DNA of 64,000 nt, taken from assembly GCA_041395525.1 (NCBI GenBank), contig JAWLAH010000009.1, positions 18,347-82,346 on the forward strand, given 5' to 3'. Below, in pieces: positions 5,564-27,239 of the stretch (position 1 is its first letter; each line of letters begins with the position of its first letter). Source of the DNA: Steroidobacteraceae bacterium. Lineage in GTDB: Bacteria; Pseudomonadota; Gammaproteobacteria; Steroidobacterales; Steroidobacteraceae. The notes below the pieces were generated by a model, which saw only the letters and a program-made list of their open reading frames with translations, ran no database searches and was not told the DNA's origin. The position numbers and the translations under genes were made by a program.

Positions 5564-5932
5564 CTGTCGCGCGATCCCTATGCCGAAGCTGCCGTGCAGA
5601 TTTCGCTACGATCATCCGACCGGCATGGCTGCGGCGTCGCGGCGTGCGCTGCCGAGCACCTGGTCGAACACGAGCAGCGGCGATACGCCCTGTTCGGCGG
5701 TTGTGCGCGCGGCGCGCGCCAGCGCCAAACCTCGCGCCTTGTACGCAGCTGCTTTCCTGCGATCGAGGTCGCTCCAGCAGGAGTAGCGCCGCGTCGGTGT
5801 TTCGCGTCAGTACGCGCTCATGTCGTACAATGGCACAATCAGCCCGAGTCAACGCGGTCCGGGTGCCAGGCAATATCCGCCGCGCATCCCGGGTCTCGTT
5901 CTCGTACTCAGAACAAACGGAGTGATAGCGGG

Positions 5933-6217
5933 ATGAATACCAAAACTGCAATATTGGCTGCTGCGGTCGGCAGCTTGTTCGCGATCGGGGCTACACAGGG
6001 AGCGTCGGCTGCCGACACCGAGAAGTGCTTTGGCGTCGCCAAGGCGGGCATGAACGACTGTGGCACCTCCAAGCACGGCTGCGGCGGCAAGGCTGCAGTG
6101 GACGGCGATAAGGCCGAGTGGATCAAGGTGCCCAAGGGCACTTGCGAGAAGATCGTGGGCGGTTCGCTCGAGTCATCCGAGAAGATGGCGGCGACCGACA
6201 AGAAAGAAAAGATGTGA
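5933..6217 (+). CDS. bufA: DUF2282-type bufferin precursor peptide (Sec signal plus four-Cys core)
   Basis: 94 aa. Signal [26 protein letters not shown], then [25 protein letters not shown]...[10 protein letters not shown]. Sits directly upstream of the DUF692 and DUF2063 genes. Confidence 0.85.
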
Positions 6218-6237
6218 GGCATCGCCCGGGCGATGCC
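6218..6237 (+). terminator. Perfect 20-nt GC-rich palindrome (hairpin) immediately after the bufA stop; possible attenuator or mRNA stability element
   Basis: GGCATCGCCC/GGGCGATGCC starts at the first base after the TGA. There is no downstream T-tract. Confidence 0.45.
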
Positions 6238-6242
6238 AGCGC

Positions 6243-7127
6243 GTGACCGACAGCGTGCCGCCTGACTCGCCCGGGTATCCATTGTCTGGGTTACTGCCGC
6301 CGCTCGCTGGCATCGGTTTGCGGGCGCAGCATCACGCTGCCGTCATAGAACAGCGGCCCGCTGTCGCCTGGCTCGAGGCCCACAGCGAAAACTATTTTGG
6401 CGCCGGTTCGCAGTCGCTGCAATGGCTGCTGCGCGCGCGCGAACACTATCCTGTCAGTTTGCATGGGGTGGGCCTGTCGTTAGGTTCCACCGACCCGCTT
6501 GACCTCGCGCATATCGACGAATGGCGTCGGCTGATTGCCCGCGTTGAGCCGGCGGCAGTCTCCGAACACCTATGCTGGAGTTCGGTCGACGGTCGCCACA
6601 GCAACGATTTACTGCCGCTGCCGTATACGCGCGAAGCGCTGCGCCACGTGACGGCCCGCGTTATCCAGATCCAGGAGCTGTTCGGGCGACAGATGCTGAT
6701 CGAGAACCTCTCGAGTTACCTGCAGTTCGAGCACCAGGAGATGCCCGAGTGGGTGTTTCTGGCCGAACTCGCGCGCGCCAGCGGCTGCGGCATCCTGCTC
6801 GATGTGAATAACATCTATGTCAACGCCATGAACCAGGGTTTCGATCCTTTGGAATACCTGCATGCGATCCCGCGCGACCCGGTTGGCGAGATCCATCTCG
6901 CCGGCCACAGCACTCGGGCAATCGGCGACGATACGATGTTGATTGATACGCACAGTGCCCCGGTTTGCGATGCGGTCTGGGACTTGTATGCAGCGGCGAT
7001 CAAGCGCTTTGGCGCCCAGCCCACGCTGATCGAATGGGATGCGGATATTCCGGCACTCGAAGTGTTAGTCAGCGAGGCCAAGCGTGCCGAGCGCGTGGCG
7101 GGAGAGGCACTTGCCATCGCTGCTTGA
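6243..7127 (+). CDS. bufB: DUF692 / MNIO (MbnB-like) multinuclear iron oxidase, bufferin maturation enzyme
   Basis: GIGLRAQHH...WLEAHSENYF...VSLHGVGLSLGS...VSEHLCW...LIENLSSY...LLDVNNIYVNA...EIHLAGH. The start is uncertain: GTG 6243 or 6255, and the ORF is open back to 6060. Confidence 0.85.
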   Translation: MTDSVPPDSPGYPLSGLLPPLAGIGLRAQHHAAVIEQRPAVAWLEAHSENYFGAGSQSLQWLLRAREHYPVSLHGVGLSLGSTDPLDLAHIDEWRRLIARVEPAAVSEHLCWSSVDGRHSNDLLPLPYTREALRHVTARVIQIQELFGRQMLIENLSSYLQFEHQEMPEWVFLAELARASGCGILLDVNNIYVNAMNQGFDPLEYLHAIPRDPVGEIHLAGHSTRAIGDDTMLIDTHSAPVCDAVWDLYAAAIKRFGAQPTLIEWDADIPALEVLVSEAKRAERVAGEALAIAA

Positions 7128-7872
7128 TGTACAGCGGCAGTTCGCGGCTGGCTTGTTCGGCGAACAGCGTCTCCCCGAGCAGGGGTTACTGCAGGCGGCA
7201 GGCATTGCGCCTGCGCTGCGGCTCGGCATCTACACTAACAATCATCGTCAGGGTGTGCGTGGTGCACTGGCGCTGATGTACCCGGTGATCGAGCGCTTGG
7301 TCGGCAGCGAATATTTCCGGGACCTCGCTGACGAGTATCGGCCGCAGCACCCGTCGACGCGTGGCGATCTGCATCATCTCGGTTTCGCGTTCCCGACTTT
7401 TCTGGGCGAGAGATTCGGAGGCGGCGAGTACGCGTACCTTGCCGATGTCGCAGCGCTCGAGTGGGCCATCGAGGATGCGCGTCGCGCTGCTCTGGTCGAG
7501 GCGCTGACGCCGGACGCATTGCGTGACGTGCCGGCCGAGCAATACGACGCATTGCATTTCAACTTTCATCCGGGCGCACGGCTCATCCGCTCGCGGTTTC
7601 CGATTCGGCGCATCTGGCTGGCCAACCAGGCGGGCGTCGAGTCGGTAGACACTGTGCGACTGGATGAAGGTGACGACTGGCTGCTGGTGCGCGCGCTACC
7701 CGATGAGATCGCTTTGGCATCGCTCGATGAGGCGGGCTACTTGTTTGCTCGGGAACTAGAGCAGGGTGTCTCGCTGGGGGAGGCGGCCGAGCGCGCCCTC
7801 GCCCTCGATGCGGTGTTCGATCTGGGGGCAGCACTGCGGCGGTTGTTTGCACTCGCAGCTTTCCGCATCTAA
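7084..7872 (+). CDS. bufC: DUF2063-domain partner protein of the MNIO enzyme
   Basis: Position and size (about 255 aa) match the third gene of DUF2282-DUF692-DUF2063 operons. Overlaps the bufB 3' end. An alternative TTG start lies at 7111. Confidence 0.7.
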   Translation: MPSAWRERHLPSLLDVQRQFAAGLFGEQRLPEQGLLQAAGIAPALRLGIYTNNHRQGVRGALALMYPVIERLVGSEYFRDLADEYRPQHPSTRGDLHHLGFAFPTFLGERFGGGEYAYLADVAALEWAIEDARRAALVEALTPDALRDVPAEQYDALHFNFHPGARLIRSRFPIRRIWLANQAGVESVDTVRLDEGDDWLLVRALPDEIALASLDEAGYLFARELEQGVSLGEAAERALALDAVFDLGAALRRLFALAAFRI

Positions 7873-8108
7873 AAAGGGCCGTGCCGAGAGAGTCTGTGCT
7901 AACCATCCTGTAGGTATCCGCCGACAGGCTACGCAGCTATTAGTTAGTTTGGTCCCCGTCTGTACAGCTGCGAATTGAATCATCTCATAGAACCGTCTCG
8001 GTAAGTCCGTATGGCGGAGCCGGTACGTGGAGCGTAGTCGTATGTCTTGACAGGTCCGCTTGCTTTGCTTGCGTGGTTCAGGGCTCGCCGCGAACAAGGG
8101 AGGCGAGA

Positions 8109-9215
8109 ATGCGAGAATTCGTCGTCATGACTTTCGCCACGGTCGGCTTGTTCGCCGCCGCGGCTTGGTACGCGCCGGTGGACGCGCAGCAAGGTGACGC
8201 CAAGCCCAATCCGCACAATCTTCCGGCCACCAGTCTCGGCGACCGTCTCGACGACCGTCTCGACGACCGTCTCGACGACGATACACTCGGTAGCCGCGGA
8301 CGCACAGGGCATCCGAGCATTGCCGCATCGCCCGGCTTCGCACACGCGAGCGTCGCCAACAATCCCGCGGTGCGAGATGCCAAGCCGGTCGGACAAGCCG
8401 TTTGTATGGCCTGCCACACGCTGGAATCCAAGTCGTTCGCGCACACGACGCATGCTCTCGGCATGAACGTGGCATTGGCGGCCAGCCCCACGACGCCGAC
8501 CTGCGAGGCTTGCCACGGGCCGGGCGCAGCGCACGCAAAGAATCCGACTGCACGCGGCCTGATCATTGCCTTTACTCACGACGGTGGCACGCCCGTCGAG
8601 ACGCAAACGGCGAGCTGCCTGGCTTGCCACGCGGGCGGCGCGCGGGATCAGTGGCTCGGTTCCGTGCATCGGCGCAACCAATTGTCGTGCAGCGACTGCC
8701 ATAACCCGATGGCGCAATCGTCTGCCGAGGGCTTGCAGGCCAAACGGTCGATCAACGAAACCTGCGCGACCTGCCACCAGGACATCCGCCAGCAATTCAA
8801 TCGACGTTCACACATGCCGCTGCCAGAGGGTCAGATGGCATGCGTCGATTGCCACAACCCGCACGGCAGCATCAACGCGGTGCTACTGAAAACGGATACG
8901 GTCAACGAGACTTGTTATCAATGTCATGCTGAAAAGCGCGGGCCGTTTCTGTTCGAGCATGCGCCGGTACGCGAATCCTGCCTGAGCTGCCACACGCCCC
9001 ATGGCTCAAACCAGCACGCGTTGCTGGTCGCGCCGATTCCGATGCTGTGTCAGCAATGTCATTCGCACGTGCGCCATCCGAACGACATGCCCAACGAGCA
9101 GCAGCTGGCGAGCGGTCTGGCGCCTGATGAGCGTGTGATGGGCCGAGGTTGTCTCACCTGCCATGCCCAGATCCATGGCTCGAACCATCCGGCTGGTCCG
9201 CGGCTACACAAATAG
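8109..9215 (+). CDS. Periplasmic decahaem c-type cytochrome, MtrA/DmsE/MtoA/PioA family
   Basis: Ten CXXCH motifs (CMACH, CEACH, CLACH, CSDCH, CATCH, CVDCH, CYQCH, CLSCH, CQQCH, CLTCH). Sec signal ending VDA|QQ. GGGAGG ribosome-binding site upstream of the ATG. Confidence 0.9.
   Translation: MREFVVMTFATVGLFAAAAWYAPVDAQQGDAKPNPHNLPATSLGDRLDDRLDDRLDDDTLGSRGRTGHPSIAASPGFAHASVANNPAVRDAKPVGQAVCMACHTLESKSFAHTTHALGMNVALAASPTTPTCEACHGPGAAHAKNPTARGLIIAFTHDGGTPVETQTASCLACHAGGARDQWLGSVHRRNQLSCSDCHNPMAQSSAEGLQAKRSINETCATCHQDIRQQFNRRSHMPLPEGQMACVDCHNPHGSINAVLLKTDTVNETCYQCHAEKRGPFLFEHAPVRESCLSCHTPHGSNQHALLVAPIPMLCQQCHSHVRHPNDMPNEQQLASGLAPDERVMGRGCLTCHAQIHGSNHPAGPRLHK
8241..8276 (+). repeat. Perfect 3 x 12-nt in-frame tandem repeat (GACCGTCTCGAC) encoding (DRLD)3
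   Basis: Read directly from the sequence. Lies in the acidic linker between the signal peptide and the first haem motif. Confidence 0.95.
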
Positions 9216-9234
9216 CGGGAGCAAGACCGTGCGC

Positions 9235-11775
9235 ATGCTGCAAAGATCACAAGCCTCACGACTCACGCTGTGCATGGTGCTGTTACTGATCGCGCCCTTC
9301 GCCCGGGCGCAAGACAGCGGTCTCGGCATCGATTTGCAGTTTGGCAATGCTCTCGATCCCAGCGGCCTCGAGCCGAGCAGCGGCATAGGCACGCTGGGCT
9401 GCGATCCCGATGGCGCCAGTTGGTTGACGAGCGTTCGCAAGCGGACGCCCACGGGCTTCCTGTATGCCTGTCCGCCCGATCATCCGGAGTTTCTGCTGGG
9501 CGGCGAATGGCAGTACCGCGGCGCGTTTTCGGTCGGTTATCTGGGGCTCTCGGGCGACCAGGACAACATGCTGTTCAGCCGCTACTCGAATTGGGATGAC
9601 GGTCTGTATCTGGGTGGCAGTTTCCGCTACGAGAAGCCGAGCGACGGCAGTTATTTCGATGTGCGCGCCAGTCGCATCAACGACGACGATCAATACCTGC
9701 GTGCGTTGTACGGACGTGCCGGCAAGTATCGCATCCAGGCATTCGTGCGCAGCCAATCCAATGTGACGAGCAGCAATGCCCGTTCGATCTGGGAGGGCAT
9801 TGGTAGCAATAATCTCACGCTGAACGGCGCCCTGACGCCAGCCAGCAGCACCTCTGCGCAAGTTGCAGCGGTGTCGGCCAGCCAGCCGGAGCAGAGCCTG
9901 GTGGTGGTGCGTGACAAGCAGGGCCTCGGCATCAACTATTTCATCAGTCCGCGCTGGGTAGCATTCGGAAATATCAGCCATGAGTCGCGCGCGGGCGCGC
10001 GCCCGTTCGGCGGTCCGTTCTTTTTCAATTATCCGTTTGCCGACAACGGCGGCGCGTACGAGATTCCGCGGCCAATCGATGACAGTACTGTCAATCTCAA
10101 CGGCGGCGCACGCTGGACGGGCAGCGCCTGGCGCATGGAGTTTGCGTATTCGGGCTCGTTCTTCCGCCATGCCAATGGCACGTTCGACTACCAGGTGCCC
10201 TTCGCGGTCCGGCCGGTTGTGCCTGGCCTGGTGTCGCCGCTGCTAACCAGCGGCCAGTTCGCCTACGAACCGGAGAACGACTATCACCATCTGCGGGTCA
10301 ATCTGACTCGCAAGATCGCCCTGAACGGTGAGTTCTCGTTGGCCGCATCGGGTGGTGAATTGAGCCAGAACGACCAGTTGGCACCACCGATGACCTGCAC
10401 TGGCCAGTTCGGTATCCCGGTCATTCCCGGCAACCTGTACGACTGTGCAAACTGGAACACGAGCGCTGCCTTGTCGCGCGCGCGCGCCGATCTCGCGATC
10501 AAGACCTCGATGCTCGATGCGCGAGTCGTGCTGCAGCCGGGGCGTGACGTCACCTGGCGGGCAAGCGCGAAATACGATCGGCAGGATTATCAAGGCGACT
10601 ACGACGCCTTCAACCCGCTCACCGGTCAGTGGGGTTACCCGGCGGAAAACGGCGCGCAGGGTAGCGTGGTGCCATTCGAATCCGGCATTTGGGATCCGGG
10701 CCCAGGCGCCAGCAACATTACGCGCATTCGCAACCTGCCGCTCGATCGTGAACTATTACAGTTCACGCTGAGTGCGGATGTGCGTCTGAATACCAGCAAC
10801 TCACTCGGCACCACATACAGTTTCGATCGCACCAAACGCGGCAATCGCGAGGTTGCCACGACCAACGATCATTCGCTCAAGCTTACCTGGCACAATCGCA
10901 CGTTCGACTGGCTCACCTTTCGCGCTAACTACACCTACCTGCGCCGTACCGGCAGCGAATACGAGTTCAATCCGTACGAGTACACGTTCTCGACCTCGCT
11001 CCCGGGCTTCGTCATTCCGCCGAATGGCGTACCCGCGCACACGGTTTCGGCCATGCGCAAGTACGACGTCGGCGGCCGCACGCAGCACAAAGCCGATTTG
11101 ATGGCGACCTTTGTCCTACCGAGTGACATGACGTTCTATGCGTCAGTCCGTGGCGACTGGAACGACTACAGTGCGGTGATCGGCCGACGAGGTTACGATG
11201 CGCTGGGCGGCAGTCTGCAATGGGAATGGCAGCCCACAACTGCCACGGTGGCGAGCGTCTGGTACGGCTTCGACCGCTCGAGCCTGGATCTGGCCAATGT
11301 CAATGATGCCGCCTTGACACCGGACCCGGTCCTGGGCGGCGCTACCTATCCAGAGGCCAATCGCTGGTGGTCGCGCGATCGGCAACGTAATCACTACGCC
11401 GGTCTGACGCTCAATCAGACGGTCGGACGGATCAAGCTGGATGCTAACTGGAACTGGAGCTCATCGCGCGGCCGCACGTCCTACAGCTTCAATTCACCCG
11501 GCGCGCTCACCACACCTGCGTTGGCGGCCCTGCTGACTGGGCAGTTTCCAGACATGCTCTATCGTGCCCACGCGGTCTCGCTCGGCGTGGCGATTCCGGT
11601 GAATCGCTCGTTCAGCGTGCGTGTGTTCGATCGTTATGAACGAGGTCGCGTGTCCGACTGGCATTACCTGGGTTTTGAGAATGGCCAGGTCCTCGATCAT
11701 CGCGTCTACACGGACGGTGGGCCGACTGACTACAGCGCCAATCTGATCGGCCTGGCGTTCGAGGTAAAGCTGTGA
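9235..11775 (+). CDS. Large outer-membrane beta-barrel, MtrB/PioB/MtoB-like decahaem-associated porin
   Basis: 846 aa with signal peptide (..APFARA|QD). Beta-barrel-like composition with many Y/F/W-x-alternating strands and a C-terminal ..LIGLAFEVKL. Starts 20 nt after the decahaem gene. Family assigned mainly from context and size. Confidence 0.7.
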   Translation: MLQRSQASRLTLCMVLLLIAPFARAQDSGLGIDLQFGNALDPSGLEPSSGIGTLGCDPDGASWLTSVRKRTPTGFLYACPPDHPEFLLGGEWQYRGAFSVGYLGLSGDQDNMLFSRYSNWDDGLYLGGSFRYEKPSDGSYFDVRASRINDDDQYLRALYGRAGKYRIQAFVRSQSNVTSSNARSIWEGIGSNNLTLNGALTPASSTSAQVAAVSASQPEQSLVVVRDKQGLGINYFISPRWVAFGNISHESRAGARPFGGPFFFNYPFADNGGAYEIPRPIDDSTVNLNGGARWTGSAWRMEFAYSGSFFRHANGTFDYQVPFAVRPVVPGLVSPLLTSGQFAYEPENDYHHLRVNLTRKIALNGEFSLAASGGELSQNDQLAPPMTCTGQFGIPVIPGNLYDCANWNTSAALSRARADLAIKTSMLDARVVLQPGRDVTWRASAKYDRQDYQGDYDAFNPLTGQWGYPAENGAQGSVVPFESGIWDPGPGASNITRIRNLPLDRELLQFTLSADVRLNTSNSLGTTYSFDRTKRGNREVATTNDHSLKLTWHNRTFDWLTFRANYTYLRRTGSEYEFNPYEYTFSTSLPGFVIPPNGVPAHTVSAMRKYDVGGRTQHKADLMATFVLPSDMTFYASVRGDWNDYSAVIGRRGYDALGGSLQWEWQPTTATVASVWYGFDRSSLDLANVNDAALTPDPVLGGATYPEANRWWSRDRQRNHYAGLTLNQTVGRIKLDANWNWSSSRGRTSYSFNSPGALTTPALAALLTGQFPDMLYRAHAVSLGVAIPVNRSFSVRVFDRYERGRVSDWHYLGFENGQVLDHRVYTDGGPTDYSANLIGLAFEVKL

Positions 11776-12581
11776 GCCCGCTGATGCGCAGCGTCGCCTG
11801 CGCCGCGCTCTGCCTGGCTGCCGGGCACGCTGGCGCCCAGTCTGCGGGACAAACGTCGGCATTGGACGAGTCATCAGCTGGCACTAACACCCAGGTGGCA
11901 GCGGCATTGCTGCACGCGCCGTACAGTGACCTTCGGGCGATTCGACCGATCGCTGGCGATGCGGAGGCTGGGCGCCGCAAGTCCGAATCCTGCGCGGGCT
12001 GTCACGGTGAACACGGCATTGCTATCGTCCAGGAGTTTCCGAGCTTGGCGGGGCAACACGCCGATTTCACGTACTGGCAATTGGTGGAGTACAAACGCGA
12101 CGCCATGCCTGGCGGCCAGATGACGCCGCCAATGACGCCGCTCGCGGCCGATCTCAGCGACGCCGACATGCGCGATCTGGCGGTTTACTACGCCGGCCTG
12201 GACCCGGCTGCCGCGCCCGCCACGGAAGCCGCGGCGCGTCCGGCAACGGCAGAGCAGCTGCAACGCGGTGAGTTGTTATACCTGTCGGGCGATCCGGGGC
12301 GTGGCATCCCGCCGTGTCAGGGCTGTCACGGATCGGATGCGCGCGGTCATCGCGACGCGTTGCGACGCGACCGCAACGGCCGCACGCCCTACGCTGCTTA
12401 TCCAGCGTTGCGCGGCCAACAAGCTGCCTACCTGCGCCTAAAACTGGCCGAATACCGTGACGGAAAACAGCAGGACTCGACCACGGACTTCGTCATGAGT
12501 GGCGTTGCCGTCGCGCTCGATGACGCGAGTATTCAGGATTTGTCGGCGTGGTTAGCCTCGTTGAGCTGGGCTGCGAACTGA
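11772..12581 (+). CDS. Dihaem cytochrome c4-like periplasmic cytochrome
   Basis: Signal peptide and two class-I domains with CAGCHGEHG and CQGCHGSDARG. The GTG start overlaps the upstream stop (GTGA). Confidence 0.85.
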   Translation: MSPLMRSVACAALCLAAGHAGAQSAGQTSALDESSAGTNTQVAAALLHAPYSDLRAIRPIAGDAEAGRRKSESCAGCHGEHGIAIVQEFPSLAGQHADFTYWQLVEYKRDAMPGGQMTPPMTPLAADLSDADMRDLAVYYAGLDPAAAPATEAAARPATAEQLQRGELLYLSGDPGRGIPPCQGCHGSDARGHRDALRRDRNGRTPYAAYPALRGQQAAYLRLKLAEYRDGKQQDSTTDFVMSGVAVALDDASIQDLSAWLASLSWAAN

Positions 12582-12584
12582 GGT

Positions 12585-12610
12585 ATCCGCGACTGAGCCT
12601 CGTCGCGGAT
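12585..12610. terminator. 9-bp perfect inverted repeat (ATCCGCGAC-N8-GTCGCGGAT) between convergent genes
   Basis: Read directly. No U-tract, so function as a terminator is tentative. Confidence 0.45.
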
Positions 12611-13020
12611 CACTCTGCCGCTGGCTCGAAGCGCAGCGACACGCCATTCATGCAGTAACGTTCACCCGTGGGGGCGGGTCCATCGTTGAACACATGTCCC
12701 AAGTGCCCGCCGCATCGCGAGCAGTGCACTTCCGTGCGCTTCATGAACAGACTACCTTCGGTCCTTGTCTCCACAGCATCGGGCAAGGGCCTGAAGAAGC
12801 TCGGCCAGCCGGTGCCGCTCTCGAACTTGGTAGCGGATTCGAATAGTGGTTGATCACAGCCGGCACAGTGAAATTTCCCGGAGCGCTTCTCATAGTTGAG
12901 AGGGCTCGAGCCGGCGCGCTCCGTACCGTGCTCACGCAAGACGCGAAACGTATCGGCAGGCAGCTCCGTACGCCATTCGGCCTCGGATTTGTGAACCGCA
13001 AATTGCTTGTCGCTACTCAT
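12610..13020 (-). CDS. msrB: Peptide-methionine (R)-S-oxide reductase
   Basis: CAGCDQPLF...GTGWPSF...HCSRCGGHLGHVFNDGP. Confidence 0.95.
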   Translation of the reverse strand: MSSDKQFAVHKSEAEWRTELPADTFRVLREHGTERAGSSPLNYEKRSGKFHCAGCDQPLFESATKFESGTGWPSFFRPLPDAVETRTEGSLFMKRTEVHCSRCGGHLGHVFNDGPAPTGERYCMNGVSLRFEPAAE

Positions 13021-13024
13021 TTCG

Positions 13025-14020
13025 TCAGGTTGAACCGCGCGCTTCCCAGAGCCGCGGTTGATGATCGGTGGTGATGACGCTGATCTCGCGGCGTCGGTAG
13101 TCGATCGTAAACGACTCCAGCACGCCGATCACGTCCATGCCCAGGATCAAGGCCGGCGTGTGCTGGAGTTCCCAGACGTCGAAAACGTGAAAATTGCCGA
13201 ACGTTACGTCGACGTCGCCAATAATCAGGTCATCCAGTTTGATGGCCGGTGCGCGCCATCGCTCGCCTGCGGCGATCTGTTCCGTGGCGCCCGTGACTTC
13301 CGTCGCCTCTGCATCATCTCGGTTGCGATGGCCTATCAAGGCATCGCGCAAGGCGCCGTTGCCGAGCGTCCGTTCAGAGCCGGTGTCGATGATGATGGCG
13401 GTCTTGTAACGTCCGACGCGACCTTGCACCCGCAATACACCACCCTTGAGACGCTCCGCACGGATCTTGAATGCCCCCCCGGTCCGGGCACCGCCGCGAC
13501 TGCGCCGGATCTCGATCCTGTTGCGGCCGAAGTCGACGTCGATACGCTGCTCGGTGAGCCCGGCGACACCGAGGATGCCGTCGGCATTCGCCATGATCGA
13601 CGACCAGATGATCGGCATACGCTGATCCTCGAGGAGCAGTGCGCCGGCCTCGAGGCTGTCGATGTGCACGACCGGTACCTGGGCCGCGCCCGTGACCCCG
13701 TTCAGCGTCACGATATCGCCGTTGTTCGGCACCACTTGAAGCTTCGTGGCCAGCGCGGGTGATAGCGTGGAATGGCTGGCGCCGGTATCGATCACAAAAA
13801 GATACGGGCCCTGGCCATTGACCATGACGGGCGCCATGATCCGGCCGATTCGATCCAAGGTCGTTCGCGTCGCGTACTGCAGCTCTTCCGGCGGGTCTTC
13901 GTCCGTGCCGGTGATACGCCTGTAGGGTCGGGCCGGGGTATTCGCCCAAACGGGGCCCACGGTGGCCACGAACGCGGCACCAGCCAGACTGCTCATGAGC
14001 GCACGGCGGTCCATGGCCAC
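13025..14020 (-). CDS. Tat-signal, two-lobed retropepsin-like (clan AA) aspartic protease
   Basis: N-terminal MDRRALMSSLAGAAFVA (twin-arginine type). Two D-T-G motifs: FVIDTGASHSTL and IIIDTGSERTLG. Confidence 0.65.
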   Translation of the reverse strand: MAMDRRALMSSLAGAAFVATVGPVWANTPARPYRRITGTDEDPPEELQYATRTTLDRIGRIMAPVMVNGQGPYLFVIDTGASHSTLSPALATKLQVVPNNGDIVTLNGVTGAAQVPVVHIDSLEAGALLLEDQRMPIIWSSIMANADGILGVAGLTEQRIDVDFGRNRIEIRRSRGGARTGGAFKIRAERLKGGVLRVQGRVGRYKTAIIIDTGSERTLGNGALRDALIGHRNRDDAEATEVTGATEQIAAGERWRAPAIKLDDLIIGDVDVTFGNFHVFDVWELQHTPALILGMDVIGVLESFTIDYRRREISVITTDHQPRLWEARGST

Positions 14021-14042
14021 TATCCTACGCCGATCGACGCGT

Positions 14043-14056
14043 TTGACCTAGATCAA
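14043..14056. promoter_or_regulatory. FNR/CRP-type box TTGAC-CTAG-ATCAA upstream of the fnr-like gene
   Basis: One mismatch to the TTGAT-N4-ATCAA consensus. Centre lies about 78 nt upstream of the ATG at 14128. Confidence 0.55.
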
Positions 14057-14127
14057 TGACGCGCCGGGCGGAGCGGTGGACAGTTCAAAGTTGACGTCCA
14101 GCTGGCGGGATCGCACCGCGGGATACC

Positions 14128-14817
14128 ATGCCGACCAACTCCACGGGACCAATCGCCTGCCGCTACTGCGACCTGGTCGAGGTTTGCCGTCAGTGCGGAA
14201 TCATCGCCCAGCGTGAGAGTGGCGAATTGCAGCGCGCTGGCAGTGCCCCGCGTACCTTGCCGATAGGCGCCCGACTGTTTCGTGCGGGTGAAGCCGCCCA
14301 CTCGCTGTTCGCGGTGCGTCAGGGGATGCTGAAGACAGTCGATGTCGGTCTGGACGGCGAGGAGCATGTCGTGGCGGTGAACATGCCGGGGGACGCGCTG
14401 GGTACCGAGGCTTTCGGGGAGCGCATTTACGCGTACGACGTGGTCGCGGTGCAACCCGTCGTTTACTGCAAGTTGCCGCTGTCCCTGCTGAGCACCCAAT
14501 TCGCGCGCGTGCACGACTTGGCGAATGCGCTGATCAATTTGCTCAGTCGATCATCGGTGCTGCGGGTCCCGCCTGTTCGCGGGACGGTCCATCAACGGGT
14601 TGTTGCACTCATGCTCGATCTGTCGCGGCGACTGGAGCAATCGGGCTTCGATGGCCGCCGTTTTTCTCTTGGCATGACTCGGCAGGAAATCGCGAGTCTG
14701 CTCGGCACGCGGATTGAGACGGTGAGTCGAACGATCCAGAAGATGCATCGCGCGAAAGAGATCGCCATCGACGGTCAGCAGGTGACCTTGCTGTCGCTCA
14801 AGCCAGCGACGGCTTGA
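14128..14817 (+). CDS. fnr: FNR-type (Crp/Fnr family) oxygen-sensing transcription regulator
   Basis: N-terminal C11-x2-C14-x5-C20 plus C114 mirrors E. coli FNR C20/C23/C29/C122. Has a cNMP-like fold region. The HTH GTRIETVSRTIQKM carries the E--SR recognition motif. Confidence 0.8.
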   Translation: MPTNSTGPIACRYCDLVEVCRQCGIIAQRESGELQRAGSAPRTLPIGARLFRAGEAAHSLFAVRQGMLKTVDVGLDGEEHVVAVNMPGDALGTEAFGERIYAYDVVAVQPVVYCKLPLSLLSTQFARVHDLANALINLLSRSSVLRVPPVRGTVHQRVVALMLDLSRRLEQSGFDGRRFSLGMTRQEIASLLGTRIETVSRTIQKMHRAKEIAIDGQQVTLLSLKPATA

Positions 14818-14827
14818 CAGTTATCAA
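14814..14827. promoter_or_regulatory. FNR-type box TTGAC-AGTT-ATCAA upstream of ubiU
   Basis: Overlaps the fnr stop codon. Centre lies about 41 nt upstream of the ubiU ATG. Confidence 0.6.
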
Positions 14828-14861
14828 TACCGGGTCGCGCGCATGACGTCACCATGCACGC

Positions 14862-15863
14862 ATGACACTCGAACTCGTCTGTCCAGCCGGCACGCTGCCG
14901 GCCCTGCGCGCCGCTGTTGACAACGGCGCCGACGCTGTCTACCTCGGCTTTCGCGGCGCCACTAACGCGCGCAACTTCCCCGGACTCAACTTCAGCGAAA
15001 GCGAAGCGGCCGCTGGTGTCGCCTATGCACACGAGCGCGGTTCACGCGTGTTCGTTGCACTCAACGTCTACCCGTCGCCCACTACGTGGGAGGCGGCCAC
15101 CAACACAATCGATCGGGCTGCGCGGCTCGGCGTCGATGCGTTGATCCTGGCCGATCCTGGATTGATGCGTTTCGCGGCCGACCGCTACCCCAACCTGCGG
15201 CTGCACCTGAGTGTGCAGAGTTCCGCTACCAACTGGCGTGCGATTGAATTCTACCGGCAGGAATTTGGCGTGCAGCGTGCCGTACTGCCGCGCGTACTGT
15301 CTGCCACGCAGGTCGCGCGCCTGATCAAACGCACGTCGGTCGAGATCGAGGTCTTCGGCTTCGGCAGCCTCTGCGTCATGGCGGAGGGGCGTTGCGCGCT
15401 GTCGTCGTTTGCCACGGGGCACTCGCCCAATACGCAGGGCGTGTGCTCACCGGCCCACGCCGTGCGTTGGGAGGAGACACCAGCTGGCCGCCAAGCGCGC
15501 CTCAACGACATTCTCATTGATCGCTACGCACCGGGCGAGGCGGCCGCCTACCCGACCCTTTGCAAGGGGCGCTTTCGCGTCAACGACAGGGTTTTGCACG
15601 CACTCGAAGAGCCGACCAGCTTGAATGCACTCGACGTCCTGCCGGCACTCGCCGTGAGCGGCGTCAAGGCCATCAAGGTCGAGGGGCGACAACGCTCACC
15701 CGCCTATGTCGCACAGGTCACGCGCCTGTTGCGCCGCGCGTTGGACCTTTGCAATGACGCGGCGGCCAAATGGGTGCCGCCGGTCGAGCTGATCGGTGAG
15801 CTCGACGCACTGGCGGAGGGGCGCACGCATACGCTCGGCGCTTACGATCGCTCATGGCAATGA
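14862..15863 (+). CDS. ubiU: U32-peptidase-family protein UbiU (O2-independent ubiquinone hydroxylation)
   Basis: MTLELVCPAG..LRAAVDNGADAVYLGF..ARNF is the YhbU-type N-terminus. Conserved Cys cluster (CVMAEGRC..C..C). Paired with ubiV and ubiT. Confidence 0.85.
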   Translation: MTLELVCPAGTLPALRAAVDNGADAVYLGFRGATNARNFPGLNFSESEAAAGVAYAHERGSRVFVALNVYPSPTTWEAATNTIDRAARLGVDALILADPGLMRFAADRYPNLRLHLSVQSSATNWRAIEFYRQEFGVQRAVLPRVLSATQVARLIKRTSVEIEVFGFGSLCVMAEGRCALSSFATGHSPNTQGVCSPAHAVRWEETPAGRQARLNDILIDRYAPGEAAAYPTLCKGRFRVNDRVLHALEEPTSLNALDVLPALAVSGVKAIKVEGRQRSPAYVAQVTRLLRRALDLCNDAAAKWVPPVELIGELDALAEGRTHTLGAYDRSWQ

Positions 15864-16750
15864 GCGCACGCCCGATGAAGCTGGCGGTCGGCCCGCTCCT
15901 CTATCTTTGGGATCGGCAGACGGCACTCGATTTCTACGCCGATATGTGTGACGCGCCGGTCGATATCGTGTATCTCGGGGAAGTCGTTTGCAGCAAGCGA
16001 CGGGTGCTGCAGAAGGACGACTGGGGGTTGGTCGCGTGCGCACTGGAAGCCGCTGGCAAAGAAGTGGTCTGGTCGACCCTGGCGCTGATCGAGGCCGAAT
16101 CGGAACTCGCGACGATGGCGCGCATCGTCGACGGATCCGCCGGTCACTTCGAGGCTAACGACATGGCGGCAGTTCAACATGGCGCCGGCAGTCCGTTCGT
16201 AGCCGGTCCGCATCTCAACGTCTATAACGAAGCGACGTTGCGATTGCTCGTTGAGCAAGGCGCCAGGCGCTGGGTGGCCCCCGTGGAACTGCCCCTGGCA
16301 ACCATTGCGACGCTTGGCGAGACACGCCCCAAGGGTCTCGAGATCGAAGTGTTCGCATACGGTCGCTTGCCGCTAGCCTTCTCCGCGCGTTGCTTTACCG
16401 CTCGTTCGCAAGATCGGCCAAAGGATGATTGCGGCTTCATCTGTCGCGAGTACCCCGACGGCATCACGCTGTACTCTCGTGACGACCAGCCGTTCCTGAC
16501 TCTGAACGGTATCCAGACGCAGTCCGCCGCCGTACAAAATCTCTGCGCTCGCGTTGGTGAGCTGCGCGCAGCCGGGGTCGATATCCTCAGGCTCTCGCCG
16601 CAATCGCAGGACTTCGCGGCCGTGATCCGCGCGTTTCGGGATGCGGTAGACGCTACCGGCGCGGCAACGCCGTTCCCGGCCTCCGTGCTGCCGGGTGGCT
16701 ATTGCGACGGTTACCTGCGGGGTGCAGCCGGGATAGAGCGTGCACCGTGA
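15860..16750 (+). CDS. ubiV: U32-peptidase-family protein UbiV
   Basis: MKLAVGPLLYLW..VDIVYLGEVVCSKR is the YhbV type. An ATGA overlap with the ubiU stop suggests translational coupling. Alternative starts at 15854 and 15875. Confidence 0.85.
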   Translation: MSARPMKLAVGPLLYLWDRQTALDFYADMCDAPVDIVYLGEVVCSKRRVLQKDDWGLVACALEAAGKEVVWSTLALIEAESELATMARIVDGSAGHFEANDMAAVQHGAGSPFVAGPHLNVYNEATLRLLVEQGARRWVAPVELPLATIATLGETRPKGLEIEVFAYGRLPLAFSARCFTARSQDRPKDDCGFICREYPDGITLYSRDDQPFLTLNGIQTQSAAVQNLCARVGELRAAGVDILRLSPQSQDFAAVIRAFRDAVDATGAATPFPASVLPGGYCDGYLRGAAGIERAP

Positions 16751-17210
16751 GGCTTGCGAGAGGACCCGGCAGTACTGCTCTGACATGCGCTGGCAAATCG
16801 TAGTCCCAGCCGTCGAGCAGATTTTTCAGATGCAGCCCGGTTTCGGTCTCGCCTTCGACACCGAGGCGTCGTTGAAAGAACAGCGCATCGGGATCGACTC
16901 GGCGTCGCGCAAGATCGACGAAGTCCACGAGTGCACCTCGAATCGTGACATGCGGCGCCTGCACCGAATGGCGCAGCCCACCCGCGCGCAATTCGAACGT
17001 GAACGCGAGCGGCACGTCATCGACGCGCAATGCGATGCGTTTGCCGGTCAGTTCGCCGAGCCGCTCCGCGATGACTTGGCCGCGCAGCAACTGATTGATC
17101 GCGAGTGCGAGCAGTTGCGCTTGCGCGGTGACCGGCGCCAGACGCAGCGCGTGTCGAAGTACGGCATGAGTATCGAGCATGGGCATGTCCCTGGAGGCTG
17201 CTGCACGCAT
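16653..17210 (-). CDS. ubiT: SCP2-domain ubiquinone biosynthesis accessory factor UbiT
   Basis: RIALRVDD...[28 protein letters not shown] is YhbT-like. The Arg-rich tail overlaps the ubiV 3' end, so the true stop is uncertain. Confidence 0.8.
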
Positions 17211-17237
17211 TCATGCCATGCACGACGCGTGTGCGTA

Positions 17238-17251
17238 TTGACGTTCGTCAA
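17238..17251. promoter_or_regulatory. Palindromic FNR/ANR-type box TTGAC-GTTC-GTCAA in the ubiT/ubiD divergent region
   Basis: Centre is equidistant (about 34 nt) from the ubiT ATG (17210) and the ubiD ATG (17279). Confidence 0.6.
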
Positions 17252-17278
17252 GCTGTCCACGGCGCGCGGAGCGTCGGG

Positions 17279-18775
17279 ATGACTCACGTAAGCCTGCGAG
17301 AGTTCGTGCGGGTGCTGGAACAGAGCGGTGATCTGAAGCGCGTACCGTTTCCGGTCGATCCGCGACTCGAGATGACGGATCTGTGTCGGCGGAGCCTCGA
17401 AGCAGGCGGGCCGGCGCTCTGGTTTGAACAGCCGCGTGGAACTGACATGCCGGTGCTCGGCAATCTCTTCGGCGCGCCGCGGCGCGTGGCGGCGGCGCTC
17501 GGCTACGATGACGTCAAGCAGTTTCGCGAAGTGGGTGAAACGCTGGCGTTGCTGCGCGAGCCACGTTGGCCGGATCAGCCACGCAAGGCACTCAGCCGGC
17601 TGCCGGCGCTGTTGTCGCTGCTCAAGGCAACGCCGCACAGTGTCACTGGTCCGCCGGACTACGAGACGGTGCAGACCGGTGCTGATGTCGACCTCAGTTG
17701 CCTGCCGGTGTGGACCTGCTGGCCCGAGGATGCGGGCCCCCTGATCACCTGGGGCCTCGTCGTGACCCGGGGTACGCGCAAGTCGCGGCAGAACGTGGCG
17801 CCCTATCGCCAGCAGGTGTTAGGCCGCAATCGCGTGATCATGCGTTGGCTGTCACAGCGGGGTGGGGCACTCGATTTTCGTGACTGGCAACGCGAGCATC
17901 CCGGCAAACCCTTCCCGGTGGTCGTGATGATCGGTGCAGATCCGGCCCTGCTGTTGGCGGCCACGACCCCGATCCCCGACAGTATCTCCGAGTATCAGTT
18001 CGCAGGATTGCTGCGCCGCCGCCGCAGTGAAGTGTTTCGCACCACCGTCGGTCTCGATAGCTGCGCGAGCGCCGAGATTGTGCTCGAGGGTCACATCGCG
18101 TCCGGCGACGAAGCGCTCGAGGGTCCTTTTGGCGATCACACTGGCTATTACAACAGCCAGGCCCGCTTTCCCGTGCTGACCGTCGAGCGTTTGTCGATTC
18201 GGCGGCAGGCGTTCTACCACGGTGGCTACCTGGGACGCTCGCCGCTGGACGAGCCGTCCGTACTGGCGATGTCTCTCAACGAGATGTTCATTCCGATCCT
18301 GCAGCGCAGCCACCCCGAGATCGTCGACTTTTATCTGCCACCCGAAGCGTGTTCGTATCGTGTCGCAGTGGTGAGCATACGCAAGGCCTATCCTGGGCAC
18401 GCGCGGCAGATCATGCAGGCCGTGTGGTCGAGCCTGCGCCAGTTTCTCTACACGAAATTCATAATCGTCACCGATGACGATATCGACGCGCGCAATTGGC
18501 AGGAGGTGATCTGGGCGATCTCGACCCGCGTCGATCCGGCGCGCGATATGCATCTCGTGCGGCGCAGTCCGATCGACTATCTTGACTTCGCCAGTCCGAT
18601 TGCTGGCCTGGGGTCGAAGCTCGGTATCGACGCGACCAACAAGTGGCCGGGCGAAACGCGCCGCAAGTGGGGGCGTCCCCTTGCGATGGACCCCGACGTG
18701 GCCCAGCGCACCGATGCGATGTGGGCGAGGCTCTTTGACAAAGATCAATGCGGACGTACGCACCACGCGCTGTAA
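17279..18775 (+). CDS. ubiD: 4-hydroxy-3-polyprenylbenzoate decarboxylase
   Basis: About 498 aa. [25 protein letters not shown].., [10 protein letters not shown]. Confidence 0.9.

Positions 18776-23015: not shown

Positions 23016-23019
<4 letters not shown>
21553..23019 (+). CDS. nadB: L-aspartate oxidase
   Basis: [18 protein letters not shown] motif, [22 protein letters not shown]. The GTG start overlaps the nadA stop (GTGA). The listed ORF extension upstream is out-of-context sequence. Confidence 0.9.
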
Positions 23020-25070
<2,051 letters not shown>

Positions 25071-25172
25071 AAGGTTCCCCTGGAAAATGAGTTATGAAAT
25101 CAGTCAGTTAGTAATTCTTGCCGCAGACTATAACAAAGCCGCTGTAAGGATTGAATCGAGGCGCCGCAATTC

Positions 25173-26438
25173 TCACGGTTTGAAGGTGCTCTTGAGCTTC
25201 CTGGGCACCGCCACACCTTTGATCGTCACATATTGCGGCAAGCCGTTGCGATAGGGCGGGTAGTCCTCGCCAACGATCAAGGGCTCGAGATAGGTGCGAC
25301 ACCTGGCCGTGATGCCAAAGCCATCGGCTGTGATGAAATTGCGCGGGACTTTCTTTTCCCTGTTGGCCACTTCGCTCAGTGCCACACGCCCGACGGTCCA
25401 CCGGTAGGGCTTGGAGGACTTGCGCACGATCGTCGGCATGACCGCATTGTGTCCGGCGAGCGCGAGATCAACGGCCGCCTTGCCCATCGCATAGGCTTGC
25501 GTCACATCGGTTTTGGAGGCGATGTGACGTGCCGCTCGCTGCAGGTAGTCGGCCACGGCCCAGTGATACTTGTACCCATGCGCGTCGCGGACCATGCTGG
25601 CGACCACCGGGGCGACGCCGCCCAGTTGCGTGTGGCCAAAGGCGTCCTTGGTGCCGGCATCCGCCAGGAAAGTGCCGTCGGCGTACGCGGCGCCTTCCGA
25701 CACCACCACGACGCAATAGCCGTTGCGCTCGACGGATTGCTTCACCCGCGCGAGAAATTTATCTTGATCGAAGGCGATCTCCGGGAACAGGATGATCTGC
25801 GGCGCGTCGTTAGCGGATTGGCCGGCCAGCCCACCCGCCGCAGCGATCCAACCGGCGTGACGCCCCATGACTTCGAGCACGAACACCTTGGTCGACGTGC
25901 GCGCCATCGAGGCGACATCGAGCGCCGCCTCGCGGGTCGAGACGGCAACATATTTGGCGACCGACCCAAATCCGGGGCAACAGTCGGTGTGCGGGAGATC
26001 GTTATCGACAGTCTTGGGTACGCCGATGCAAGTGATTCGATGGCCCAATTGATCGCTAAACTGGGCGACTTTGTCGGCGGTATCCATCGAATCGTTGCCG
26101 CCGTTGTAAAAGAAGTAGCCAATGTCGTGGGCGTTGAATACTTCGATCAACCGCTCGTACTTGGCGCGATCCTGGTCGACGTCCTTTAACTTATAGCGCG
26201 CCGAACCAAAAGCGCCGGCCGGGGTGTGGCGCAGACCGCGTATGGTGGCTGCGCTCTCTTTGCTGACATCGATCAGGTCCTCGGTAAGGGCGCCGACAAT
26301 GCCGTGACGTCCGGCCAACACCTTGCCAATTCGCTTGGATTTCTGGGCGGTCTCGATGACGCCCGCGGCCGAGGCATTGATGACCGCCGAGACGCCGCCA
26401 GACTGTGCATAGAACGCGTTTCGGGCTTTGGTGGGCAT
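25173..26438 (-). CDS. pfp: Pyrophosphate-dependent 6-phosphofructokinase (PPi-PFK)
   Basis: MPTKARNAFYAQSGG.SAVINAS, NGGNDSMDTA (Asp at the position that is Gly in the ATP-PFK GGDGS motif), VMGRHAGW. The ORF extension 26439-26825 is antisense of adk and was discarded. Confidence 0.85.
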   Translation of the reverse strand: MPTKARNAFYAQSGGVSAVINASAAGVIETAQKSKRIGKVLAGRHGIVGALTEDLIDVSKESAATIRGLRHTPAGAFGSARYKLKDVDQDRAKYERLIEVFNAHDIGYFFYNGGNDSMDTADKVAQFSDQLGHRITCIGVPKTVDNDLPHTDCCPGFGSVAKYVAVSTREAALDVASMARTSTKVFVLEVMGRHAGWIAAAGGLAGQSANDAPQIILFPEIAFDQDKFLARVKQSVERNGYCVVVVSEGAAYADGTFLADAGTKDAFGHTQLGGVAPVVASMVRDAHGYKYHWAVADYLQRAARHIASKTDVTQAYAMGKAAVDLALAGHNAVMPTIVRKSSKPYRWTVGRVALSEVANREKKVPRNFITADGFGITARCRTYLEPLIVGEDYPPYRNGLPQYVTIKGVAVPRKLKSTFKP

Positions 26439-26542
26439 GGGCACATCCTCGATTTGTTTGCCAGCTGGGCGGAACCGGGGCGAGAGGATAGCGCAGGTCG
26501 GCCGCCCGCGTTTGAGCTGCCACGGGCGTCTGCCAAGTTTGA

Positions 26543-27239
<697 letters not shown>

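Follow-up and report, generated by a model that had tools for sequence, protein, structure and literature searches.

We analysed a 64,000-nucleotide (nt) stretch of contig JAWLAH010000009.1 from a Steroidobacteraceae bacterium, referred to as the window throughout, in which three consecutive genes (A, B and C) encode a decahaem c-type cytochrome, a large outer-membrane β-barrel and a dihaem cytochrome c4, respectively (Table 1). We consider it probable that this operon specifies a trans-outer-membrane conduit of the MtoAB/PioAB type that is equipped with a periplasmic c4 of its own and conducts electrons into the cell.

Table 1. Positions in the window of the three genes and of the sequence features that accompany them
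Feature	Position	Strand	Basis or remark
Shine-Dalgarno sequence GGGAGG of gene A	8098–8103	+	read from the sequence; 5 nt before the ATG at 8109
Gene A, MtrA/MtoA/PioA/DmsE-family periplasmic decahaem c-type cytochrome, 368 amino acids (aa)	8109–9215	+	TIGR03508, MtrA match, ten CXXCH
Tandem repeat, 12-nt unit, 3.9 copies, in frame, encoding RLDD repeats	8233–8279	+	variable N-terminal region of the mature decahaem protein
Gene B, MtrB/PioB-family 26-strand outer-membrane β-barrel, 846 aa	9235–11775	+	PF11854, AlphaFold2 model, Foldseek
Gene C, periplasmic dihaem cytochrome c4, 269 aa	11772–12581	+	two CXXCH, 1etp match, fold
Perfect hairpin, 9 bp, between the convergent c4 and msrB genes	12585–12610		−22.1 kcal/mol, z −2.7

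A decahaem cytochrome, a barrel and a cytochrome c4

The product of gene A begins with a signal peptide that was read from the sequence as MREFVVMTFATVGLFAAAAWYAPVDA, followed by cleavage before QQ, and is thus predicted to be Sec-exported. It contains exactly ten CXXCH motifs and none of the variants CX3CH, CX4CH or CXXCK. The decahaem model TIGR03508 matched the protein with 259.1 bits (cutoff 192.2) over model positions 1–257 of 258, and MtrA of the solved Shewanella baltica Mtr complex (6r2q_A) aligned with an E value of 6e-59 and 39% identity over 275 aa. A preliminary description of the locus had reported an exported protein of about 370 aa with ten such motifs and of the MtrA/DmsE type, and had named the DmsE-family decahaem model as a check; in both respects it proved right. 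Across 68 decahaem homologues, there is no variation in the 20 haem cysteines, the ten proximal histidines or 11 additional histidines, and the latter residues would make ten bis-histidine haems possible. The first CXXCH motif lies at residue 99, which is about 30 residues later than in MtrA, so that the protein lacks an N-terminal extension of about 200 residues as present in PioA. The RLDD repeat is absent from the same region of the 69 listed decahaem homologues from other loci and appears to have expanded recently by slippage within a disordered segment.

The barrel protein encoded by gene B carries a signal peptide that ends in ARA, with cleavage before QD, and no CXXCH motif. An alternative start, the GTG at 9229 located 7 nt after GGGAG, is equally good and would yield a protein of 848 aa. 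Among the MtrB/PioB-family models, PF11854 (MtrB_PioB) covered the protein end to end with 295.5 bits (cutoff 23), and the relatives of the protein are named ‘MtrB/PioB family’ by NCBI. An AlphaFold2 model built from 45 sequences displays 26 long strands preceded by a disordered N-terminus of about 85 residues (predicted local distance difference test score, pLDDT, 79.8; predicted template-modelling score, pTM, 0.77), which agrees with the strand number that had been expected for this protein beforehand. When this model was compared with the PDB using Foldseek, MtrB (6r2q_B) was the best and the only strong match (E 1e-38, target-normalised template-modelling (TM) score 0.89), the remaining matches being no better than about E 1e-10. 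The view that this 846-aa protein with its signal peptide occupies the place of MtrB, PioB or MtoB is therefore supported by the Pfam model and by fold.

Wee et al. are said to have put forward, in 2014, a CXXC motif of MtrB as a marker of metal reducers; no such motif occurs in the barrel or in 44 homologues. In Shewanella MtrB, the motif is located close to the N-terminus (PMC12175506). MtoB and PioB form a long size class that exceeds MtrB by about 110 aa or more (PMC3274759), and the barrel falls into this class. It was also observed that the barrel contains two cysteine pairs, C56/C79 and C388/C404, one of which resides in the disordered N-terminal segment and the other in a loop. Across the 45 barrels C79, C388 and C404 are invariant and C56 is nearly so. 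These pairs take the place of the Shewanella MtrB CXXC motif and possibly form disulfides.

The product of gene C has CXXCH motifs at C74 and C182 and is matched twice by PF00034. Its residues 61–264 align with cytochrome c4 of P. stutzeri (1etp) with an E value of 1.3e-22, 33% identity and 84 bits. A structural model (pLDDT 84.8) retrieved c4 proteins as its top folds throughout, with TM scores ranging from 0.87 to 0.90: the best match, at 0.90, was chain K of 8smr, which is the c4 of the P. aeruginosa bc1-cbb3 supercomplex, followed by 1etp and by c4 of A. ferrooxidans (1h1o; TM 0.88). In 43 c4 homologues, the haem ligands and distal methionines are invariant, namely C74, C77, H78 and M121 for the first haem, and C182, C185, H186 and M242 for the second. 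As compared to canonical c4, members of this clade additionally possess a variable linker after the signal peptide, an insertion of about 12 residues after haem 2, and an invariant D-L-R motif right before the c4 fold, which is modelled with high confidence. The D-L-R motif and the haem-2 insertion suggest a specialisation of this c4 clade. Since the signal peptide is of the signal-peptidase-I type and a lipobox is absent, the protein is presumed to be exported and soluble.

The three genes are tightly spaced. The distance between A and B is 19 nt, or 13 nt if translation of B starts from the GTG at 9229, which corrects the 20 nt given earlier, and B and C overlap by 4 nt. That is, the GTG start codon of gene C overlaps the TGA stop codon of the barrel gene as GTGA, with a GAGG located 7 nt upstream. 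This overlap, as well as the designation of gene C as a two-CXXCH, c4-like cytochrome, had been noted in the preliminary description; by sequence and by fold, its product is a true c4.

All six frames of the window were scanned for CXXCH motifs in stop-to-stop open frames of at least 60 codons. Only A and C were found to carry more than one motif, and their multi-CXXCH pattern is far beyond chance. Single motifs are present in two further frames, at 15845–16372 (−) and 41889–42467 (+). These overlap longer open reading frames (ORFs) in other frames that match their families strongly, i.e. those of ubiU/ubiV and of transketolase, and were read as non-coding rather than as haem proteins. Thus, the scan of the 64-kb window yielded no candidates for MtrC/OmcA, CymA/NapC or MtoD. 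Tblastn searches with genes that accompany the operon in relatives (cupredoxin, HiPIP, i.e. high-potential iron-sulfur protein, monohaem cytochrome, ccm, TetR and LysR genes) returned no match in the window, and the same applied to a second set of conserved neighbours of the relatives, including DUF2214. Both approaches hence agree with the initial impression that the window is devoid of MtrC/OmcA, CymA/NapC, HiPIP and monohaem MtoD genes.

Conservation of the trio and its partners in relatives

Relatives of the operon were surveyed in genome loci from 80 species, one each and mostly Lysobacterales; loci are labelled by L numbers, and ‘with room’ denotes those whose contig is long enough. The decahaem gene is located 5′ of the barrel gene in 75/75 loci with room, and the c4 gene follows 3′ of the barrel gene in 72 of 74; only L034 (Parahaliea) and L077 (a Dokdonella metagenome-assembled genome, MAG) deviate. 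The preliminary description had recommended to survey the linkage of c4 in relatives, and these numbers demonstrate that it is not peculiar to the genome under study. In 19 of the 37 loci in which the c4 ORF could be placed, the stop codon of the barrel gene and the start codon of the c4 gene overlap by 4 nt; 17 loci have gaps of 2–13 nt and a single one has a gap of 226 nt. The link is reciprocal: three c4 homologues with 48–49% identity are all encoded directly after a decahaem and barrel pair.

The barrel has several hundred close relatives, and those with a name all belong to the Lysobacterales, namely Luteimonas, Pseudoxanthomonas, Stenotrophomonas (not S. maltophilia), Thermomonas and Dokdonella. 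The closest species representative, a Luteimonas MAG, is only about 70% identical, and proteins identical to the c4 and the barrel are confined to short contigs that stem from assemblies of metagenomes or sequencing runs. The wider barrel family is small. An exhaustive search of 1.84 billion cluster representatives returned 831 clusters at E ≤ 1e-3 and 163 at E ≤ 1e-30. The next clade of barrels, at 38–42% identity, is found in Dyella, Rhodanobacter, Luteibacter and Algiphilus, and in each of three members examined (from Dyella, Algiphilus and one metagenome contig) a dihaem c gene follows the barrel gene. No cytochrome gene was detected after the barrel gene in three sampled barrels of about 33% identity, the contig of one of which ends 44 codons into the next gene. 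Linkage to c4, being retained at 38–42% identity and not seen in the three more distant barrels, thus marks a subfamily that extends across Lysobacterales and Nevskiales. In this subfamily, c4 is the defining and near-universal third gene.

Many relatives encode a fourth partner. A cupredoxin gene is located after the c4 gene in 42 of the 66 loci with room, and the cupredoxin of the type present in Stenotrophomonas and Pseudoxanthomonas is an azurin equivalog (TIGR02695, 169 bits, cutoff 105). A HiPIP gene occurs at this place in four of the 66 loci (L052, L069, L070 and L073), of which L052 has a cupredoxin gene as well. Algiphilus (L090) likewise has a HiPIP gene, located after the gene for the dihaem c. 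The earlier statement that a PioC-like HiPIP partner is missing therefore holds for the window, but not for the relatives, which additionally encode a HiPIP or, in far more cases, a cupredoxin of the azurin type.

Moreover, the module is joined to a System I cytochrome-c maturation (ccm) operon in 32 of 54 long loci, with three kinds of junction. In Stenotrophomonas and Pseudoxanthomonas, the order is ccmB/tetR-A-B-c4-azurin/ccmC-I (L008–L028, L036, L037, L058, L076, L080, L085 and L086). In several Dokdonella-like genomes, A, B and c4, with or without HiPIP, stand between ccmE and ccmF-I (L053, L057, L069 and L070), and in L061 and L073 only the side on which the module borders ccmF was seen. 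In Luteimonas, the module lies downstream of ccmI (L001–L003 and L005–L007). These junctions reflect either repeated insertion of the module or rearrangement of the operon around a client that requires 12 haems. The copy in the window resembles those of the Luteimonas relatives in that it has no fourth gene; unlike in the latter, none of their neighbours is present within the 64 kb. As none of the flanking genes of the relatives has a tblastn match, the window copy resides in a different neighbourhood, and it has lost the ccm context.

Several additional associations were observed in the relatives. A TetR regulator often accompanies the module when it is embedded in ccm genes. In Luteimonas (L002–L007), the c4 gene is directly followed by a gene for a predicted DUF2214 membrane protein of about 174 aa, which has no homologue in the window and could be a lineage-specific inner-membrane partner. 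In L090 (Algiphilus sp. W345, 5894–16547), the genes for decahaem, barrel, dihaem c and HiPIP are immediately followed by a complete operon for an N-type ATPase, AtpR and ATPase_gene1 included, which is an unusual pairing of a conduit with an accessory ATPase. In four loci of Rhodanobacteraceae or unclassified origin (L029, L030, L046 and L060), a pyrroloquinoline quinone (PQQ)-dependent dehydrogenase is encoded after the module and the cupredoxin, at about +1.9 to +6 kb from the barrel gene; in three of these loci, genes for an ankyrin-repeat protein and for a monohaem cytochrome c also follow. These loci hold a second periplasmic electron-donating system beside the same carriers.

Relation to known conduits and direction of electron flow

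For comparison with the named conduits, sequences and structures were used in the case of MtrA and MtrB from the PDB, whereas MtoAB and PioAB were compared by their published descriptions. MtoAB of Sideroxydans lithotrophicus ES-1 likewise combines an MtrA-family decahaem cytochrome, without the N-terminal extension of about 200 aa that is present in PioA, with an MtrB/PioB barrel of more than 800 aa in absence of MtrC (PMC3274759). MtoA itself is 42–44% identical to MtrA sequences and 39% to PioA (PMC3274759). A further parallel is the co-encoded periplasmic carrier, which in Sideroxydans is a high-potential class I c-type cytochrome proposed to feed a terminal oxidase (PMC13390432). However, the carrier is a dihaem c4 here and monohaem MtoD or PmcA there. 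The present module also comes without an inner-membrane tetrahaem cytochrome such as CymA or ImoA, so that no route to the quinone pool is co-encoded, and its hosts are heterotrophic Lysobacterales rather than autotrophic Gallionellaceae.

PioABC of Rhodopseudomonas palustris TIE-1 is similar in being a three-gene operon that encodes a decahaem cytochrome, a barrel and a soluble high-potential periplasmic carrier, and in L052, L069, L070, L073 and L090 the HiPIP gene is placed right after the cytochrome gene as pioC is placed after pioB. In the window, in contrast, the carrier is c4 and a HiPIP is missing, and the decahaem protein has 368 aa as compared to about 540 aa in PioA, whose extension measures about 200 aa (PMC3274759). 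As the host is no phototroph, the acceptor cannot be a photosynthetic reaction centre. With MtrCAB of Shewanella (6R2Q), the module shares the 39% identity of A to MtrA and the 26-strand fold of B (TM 0.89), but the barrel exceeds MtrB by about 150 aa and has no CXXC motif near its N-terminus, and MtrC, CymA and NetBCD are absent from the window, although a quinol dehydrogenase of the CymA or NetBCD type may be encoded elsewhere in the genome. In Aeromonas and Vibrio, a periplasmic dihaem cytochrome, PdsA, is likewise found beside the conduit; here, the partner is a true c4 and not a PdsA orthologue, and the direction we favour is the opposite one. Finally, the Acidithiobacillus ferrooxidans rus operon follows the same logic of outer-membrane porin-cytochrome, c4-type dihaem cytochrome, cupredoxin and terminal oxidase. 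Its outer-membrane component is, however, Cyc2, a fused monohaem porin without relationship to MtrAB, and no oxidase genes are linked to the present module; the resemblance is thus functional and architectural, and does not reflect homology of the operons.

Taken together, the module shares the protein families of MtoAB and PioAB, but falls under no system-level definition of Mtr, Pio, Mto or DmsEF. Its layout is a hybrid, in which a conduit of the Mto/Pio type is combined with a c4 of the Cyc1 type and often with a cupredoxin, as in iron oxidisers that rely on Cyc2. The preliminary description had placed the c4 outside the canonical Mtr, Mto and Pio systems. This view is upheld insofar as the protein is a true c4 and none of those definitions applies, but a dihaem shuttle beside MtrAB does have a precedent in PdsA. 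The NCBI pipeline already names the individual proteins. A description of the module or of its associations with c4, azurin, HiPIP and ccm was not found in the open-access literature, which is no proof of absence.

Cytochromes c4, azurins and HiPIPs are high-potential carriers that usually operate between bc1 and oxidases or denitrification enzymes. All carriers that are co-encoded with the conduit are of these types. In addition, neither the window nor the set of conserved neighbours at about 90 related loci yielded genes of the MtrC, CymA/NapC, NetBCD or DmsAB type, and a CXXC motif is missing from the barrel. The set of partners therefore makes electron flow towards the cell interior the more plausible direction. 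Indeed, c4 acts as donor within the bc1-cbb3 supercomplex (PDB 8smr). The HiPIP PioC accepts electrons from PioA, and in Acidithiobacillus Cyc1, which is a c4, and rusticyanin bring electrons from Fe(II) to an aa3 oxidase (PMC10654088). Likewise, high-potential MtoD is now proposed to feed the terminal oxidase, with a separate low-potential cytochrome serving the quinone branch (PMC13390432).

By homology to the solved Mtr complex, the decahaem protein A would be threaded into the 26-strand barrel B, generating a haem wire across the outer membrane. The donor outside the cell could be Fe(II), Fe(II) minerals, reduced humics or a cathode. The co-translated soluble c4 would dock at the periplasmic end of A, take over its electrons and deliver them either to an oxidase of the cbb3 or aa3 type or to denitrification enzymes in the periplasm. 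That the synteny is strict and translationally coupled, and that c4 displays clade-specific surface features, argues for a role of c4 as dedicated partner of A. Such a chain would comprise a ‘downhill-only’ branch and no quinone-reducing branch. This would fit a heterotroph that needs no reverse electron flow and gains extra energy or disposes of Fe(II), rather than an autotroph. More broadly, we tentatively propose that Lysobacterales and Nevskiales may hold a distinct and ancient ‘downhill-only’ uptake chain, in which electrons would pass from an MtoAB-type conduit to a specialised c4, optionally joined by azurin or HiPIP, and on to either a terminal oxidase or denitrification enzymes, and which would be genetically tied to the ccm operon.

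Several observations weigh against an uptake chain of this kind or against a firm assignment of its direction. First, the score of the barrel with the second MtrB/PioB-family model, TIGR03509, is 200.4 bits and stays under the NCBI cutoff of 240. Second, an FNR box was not found upstream of the decahaem gene, and oxidase, bc1 and denitrification genes were absent from the roughly 30 window genes scanned for these families, the rest of the 64 kb not having been scanned for them. Third, the high potential of the carriers is presumed from what holds for their families in general. Sequence alone fixes no direction, as the preliminary description had also stated, even though the partner set provides a reasoned lean towards uptake. 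Moreover, MtrCAB is reversible in the laboratory, and MtoA and PioA do not form a function-specific clade (PMC8805035). In Aeromonas and Vibrio, the periplasmic dihaem shuttle PdsA, whose gene adjoins mtrCAB, serves outward transfer, and the PdsA model NF049874 does match the product of gene C, albeit weakly (35.4 bits). Finally, no experimental work on any member of the clade was found in the open-access literature.

Transfer in the opposite direction we regard as rather unlikely. In this scenario, respiratory electrons would travel from c4, acting like PdsA, to the decahaem cytochrome and through the barrel to Mn(IV)/Mn(III), Fe(III) chelates, humics or an anode. Besides the reversibility of Mtr-type conduits, the precedent of PdsA and the weak match of the product of gene C to the PdsA model, it could be argued that the only solved homologue is a metal-reducing Mtr complex, and that genes for an FNR-type regulator and for ubiU/ubiV, located 1.5–4 kb downstream, equip the organism for low oxygen. 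However, the absence of MtrC/OmcA, CymA, NetBCD and NapC-type genes from the window and from the conserved neighbours of the related loci, as well as the absence of the MtrB CXXC motif, speaks against it. Orthology of the product of gene C to PdsA was rejected, since its score lies far below the cutoff of 330 bits, whereas the protein is nearer to true c4 (84 bits to 1etp). In addition, judging from what is generally known of their potentials, azurin and HiPIP would be poor donors to a low-potential decahaem wire.

Less likely still is a role in envelope redox chemistry without energy conservation, in which metals are oxidised or reduced at the surface for detoxification, homeostasis or iron acquisition, for instance by removal of Fe(II) or Cu(I) at low oxygen or by reduction of Fe(III) for uptake, and c4 links the conduit to the periplasmic cytochrome pool. 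Such a role would be consistent with the operon for a bufferin-type, copper-binding peptide directly upstream, whose maturase pair is also encoded upstream of the module in L075, and with the oxidative-damage repair gene msrB that adjoins downstream. It would further suit heterotrophic carriers of a module without a quinone-reducing branch for reverse electron flow, and the TetR and LysR regulators that flank it in relatives and are typical of stress or accessory functions. Adjacency to bufferin genes, however, occurs in only two of 81 loci and may be due to chance, and the lasting conservation of a costly three-protein system with 12 haems and strict gene order, together with its recurrent linkage to ccm and respiratory carriers, is better explained by respiration. 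The two ideas are also not exclusive, because electrons that reach an oxidase would conserve energy anyway. A DmsEF-type function was rejected, because the Pfam-scanned neighbour clusters contain no molybdopterin enzyme, none of the roughly 90 loci has a DmsAB-type neighbour, the window neighbours are the bufferin operon and msrB, and the molybdenum oxidoreductase encoded about 6 kb downstream of c4 in L087 is of a different family (PF00174).

Even for the model iron oxidiser, it is not yet settled which route electrons take from MtoA/PioA-type conduits to the inner membrane, and the pathway of Sideroxydans was revised in 2026 (PMC13390432). The module described here represents a cleaner case, as it has a single, strictly conserved and co-translated c4 partner, with azurin or HiPIP being optional. 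Sideroxydans is hard to manipulate, whereas Stenotrophomonas, Pseudoxanthomonas, Luteimonas and Dyella, which host the module, are easily grown. If electrons do flow inwards, respiration and denitrification driven by Fe(II) or a cathode would take place in very common heterotrophs of soil and wastewater, the carriers in Lysobacterales and Nevskiales being abundant and often denitrifying inhabitants of soil, water and activated sludge. An Mto/Pio conduit with a Cyc1-like c4 and a cupredoxin would then bridge two known architectures of bacterial iron oxidation. Should the proposed uptake chain prove true, oxidation of Fe(II), minerals or cathodes would be a widespread supplementary energy source in organisms that have never been ranked among the iron oxidisers, and the mechanism would be open to study in fast-growing, genetically tractable hosts. 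Outward flow would also be instructive, as the module would then be an Mtr-type reducer that operates without MtrC or CymA.

Surroundings of the operon in the window

The hairpin downstream of gene C lacks a T-run; it is probably a bidirectional terminator that closes the operon. A scan with promoter and terminator consensus sequences returned sites that are no commoner than expected by chance. Hallmarks of mobile elements were not detected around the module, i.e. there are no flanking repeats and there is no shift in composition.

Directly upstream, a bufferin-type operon for a ribosomally synthesised and post-translationally modified peptide (RiPP) occupies positions 5594–7872 (+) and is separated from the decahaem gene by a gap of 237 nt. 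It comprises an ORF resembling a DUF2282 precursor, the MNIO maturase BufB (NF050167, 388 bits, cutoff 310) and a DUF2063/HvfC-like partner. The pair located upstream of the module in L075 is BufB/BufC.

Downstream, a gene for a regulator of the FNR/CRP family (14128–14817) is followed by ubiU (NF047963, 523 bits), ubiV (NF047965, 378 bits), an ORF of 180 aa at 16740–17282, which is possibly ubiT, and ubiD. The gene set at 14043–18775 specifies the O2-independent pathway of ubiquinone synthesis. FNR boxes with one mismatch are located at 14043–14056, at 14814–14827 just before ubiU, and at 18735–18748, and FNR-like sites with up to two mismatches occur 36 times in the window as compared to 12.8 times in shuffled sequence, corresponding to an approximately three-fold excess. 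The FNR-type regulator and the nearby ubiU and ubiV genes with their FNR boxes suggest that the organism is prepared for life at low oxygen. Further downstream, at 23016–26825 (−), the gene for a membrane H+-pyrophosphatase (899 bits) adjoins that of a long phosphofructokinase (550 aa), which suggests pyrophosphate-dependent glycolysis as a housekeeping function unrelated to the conduit.

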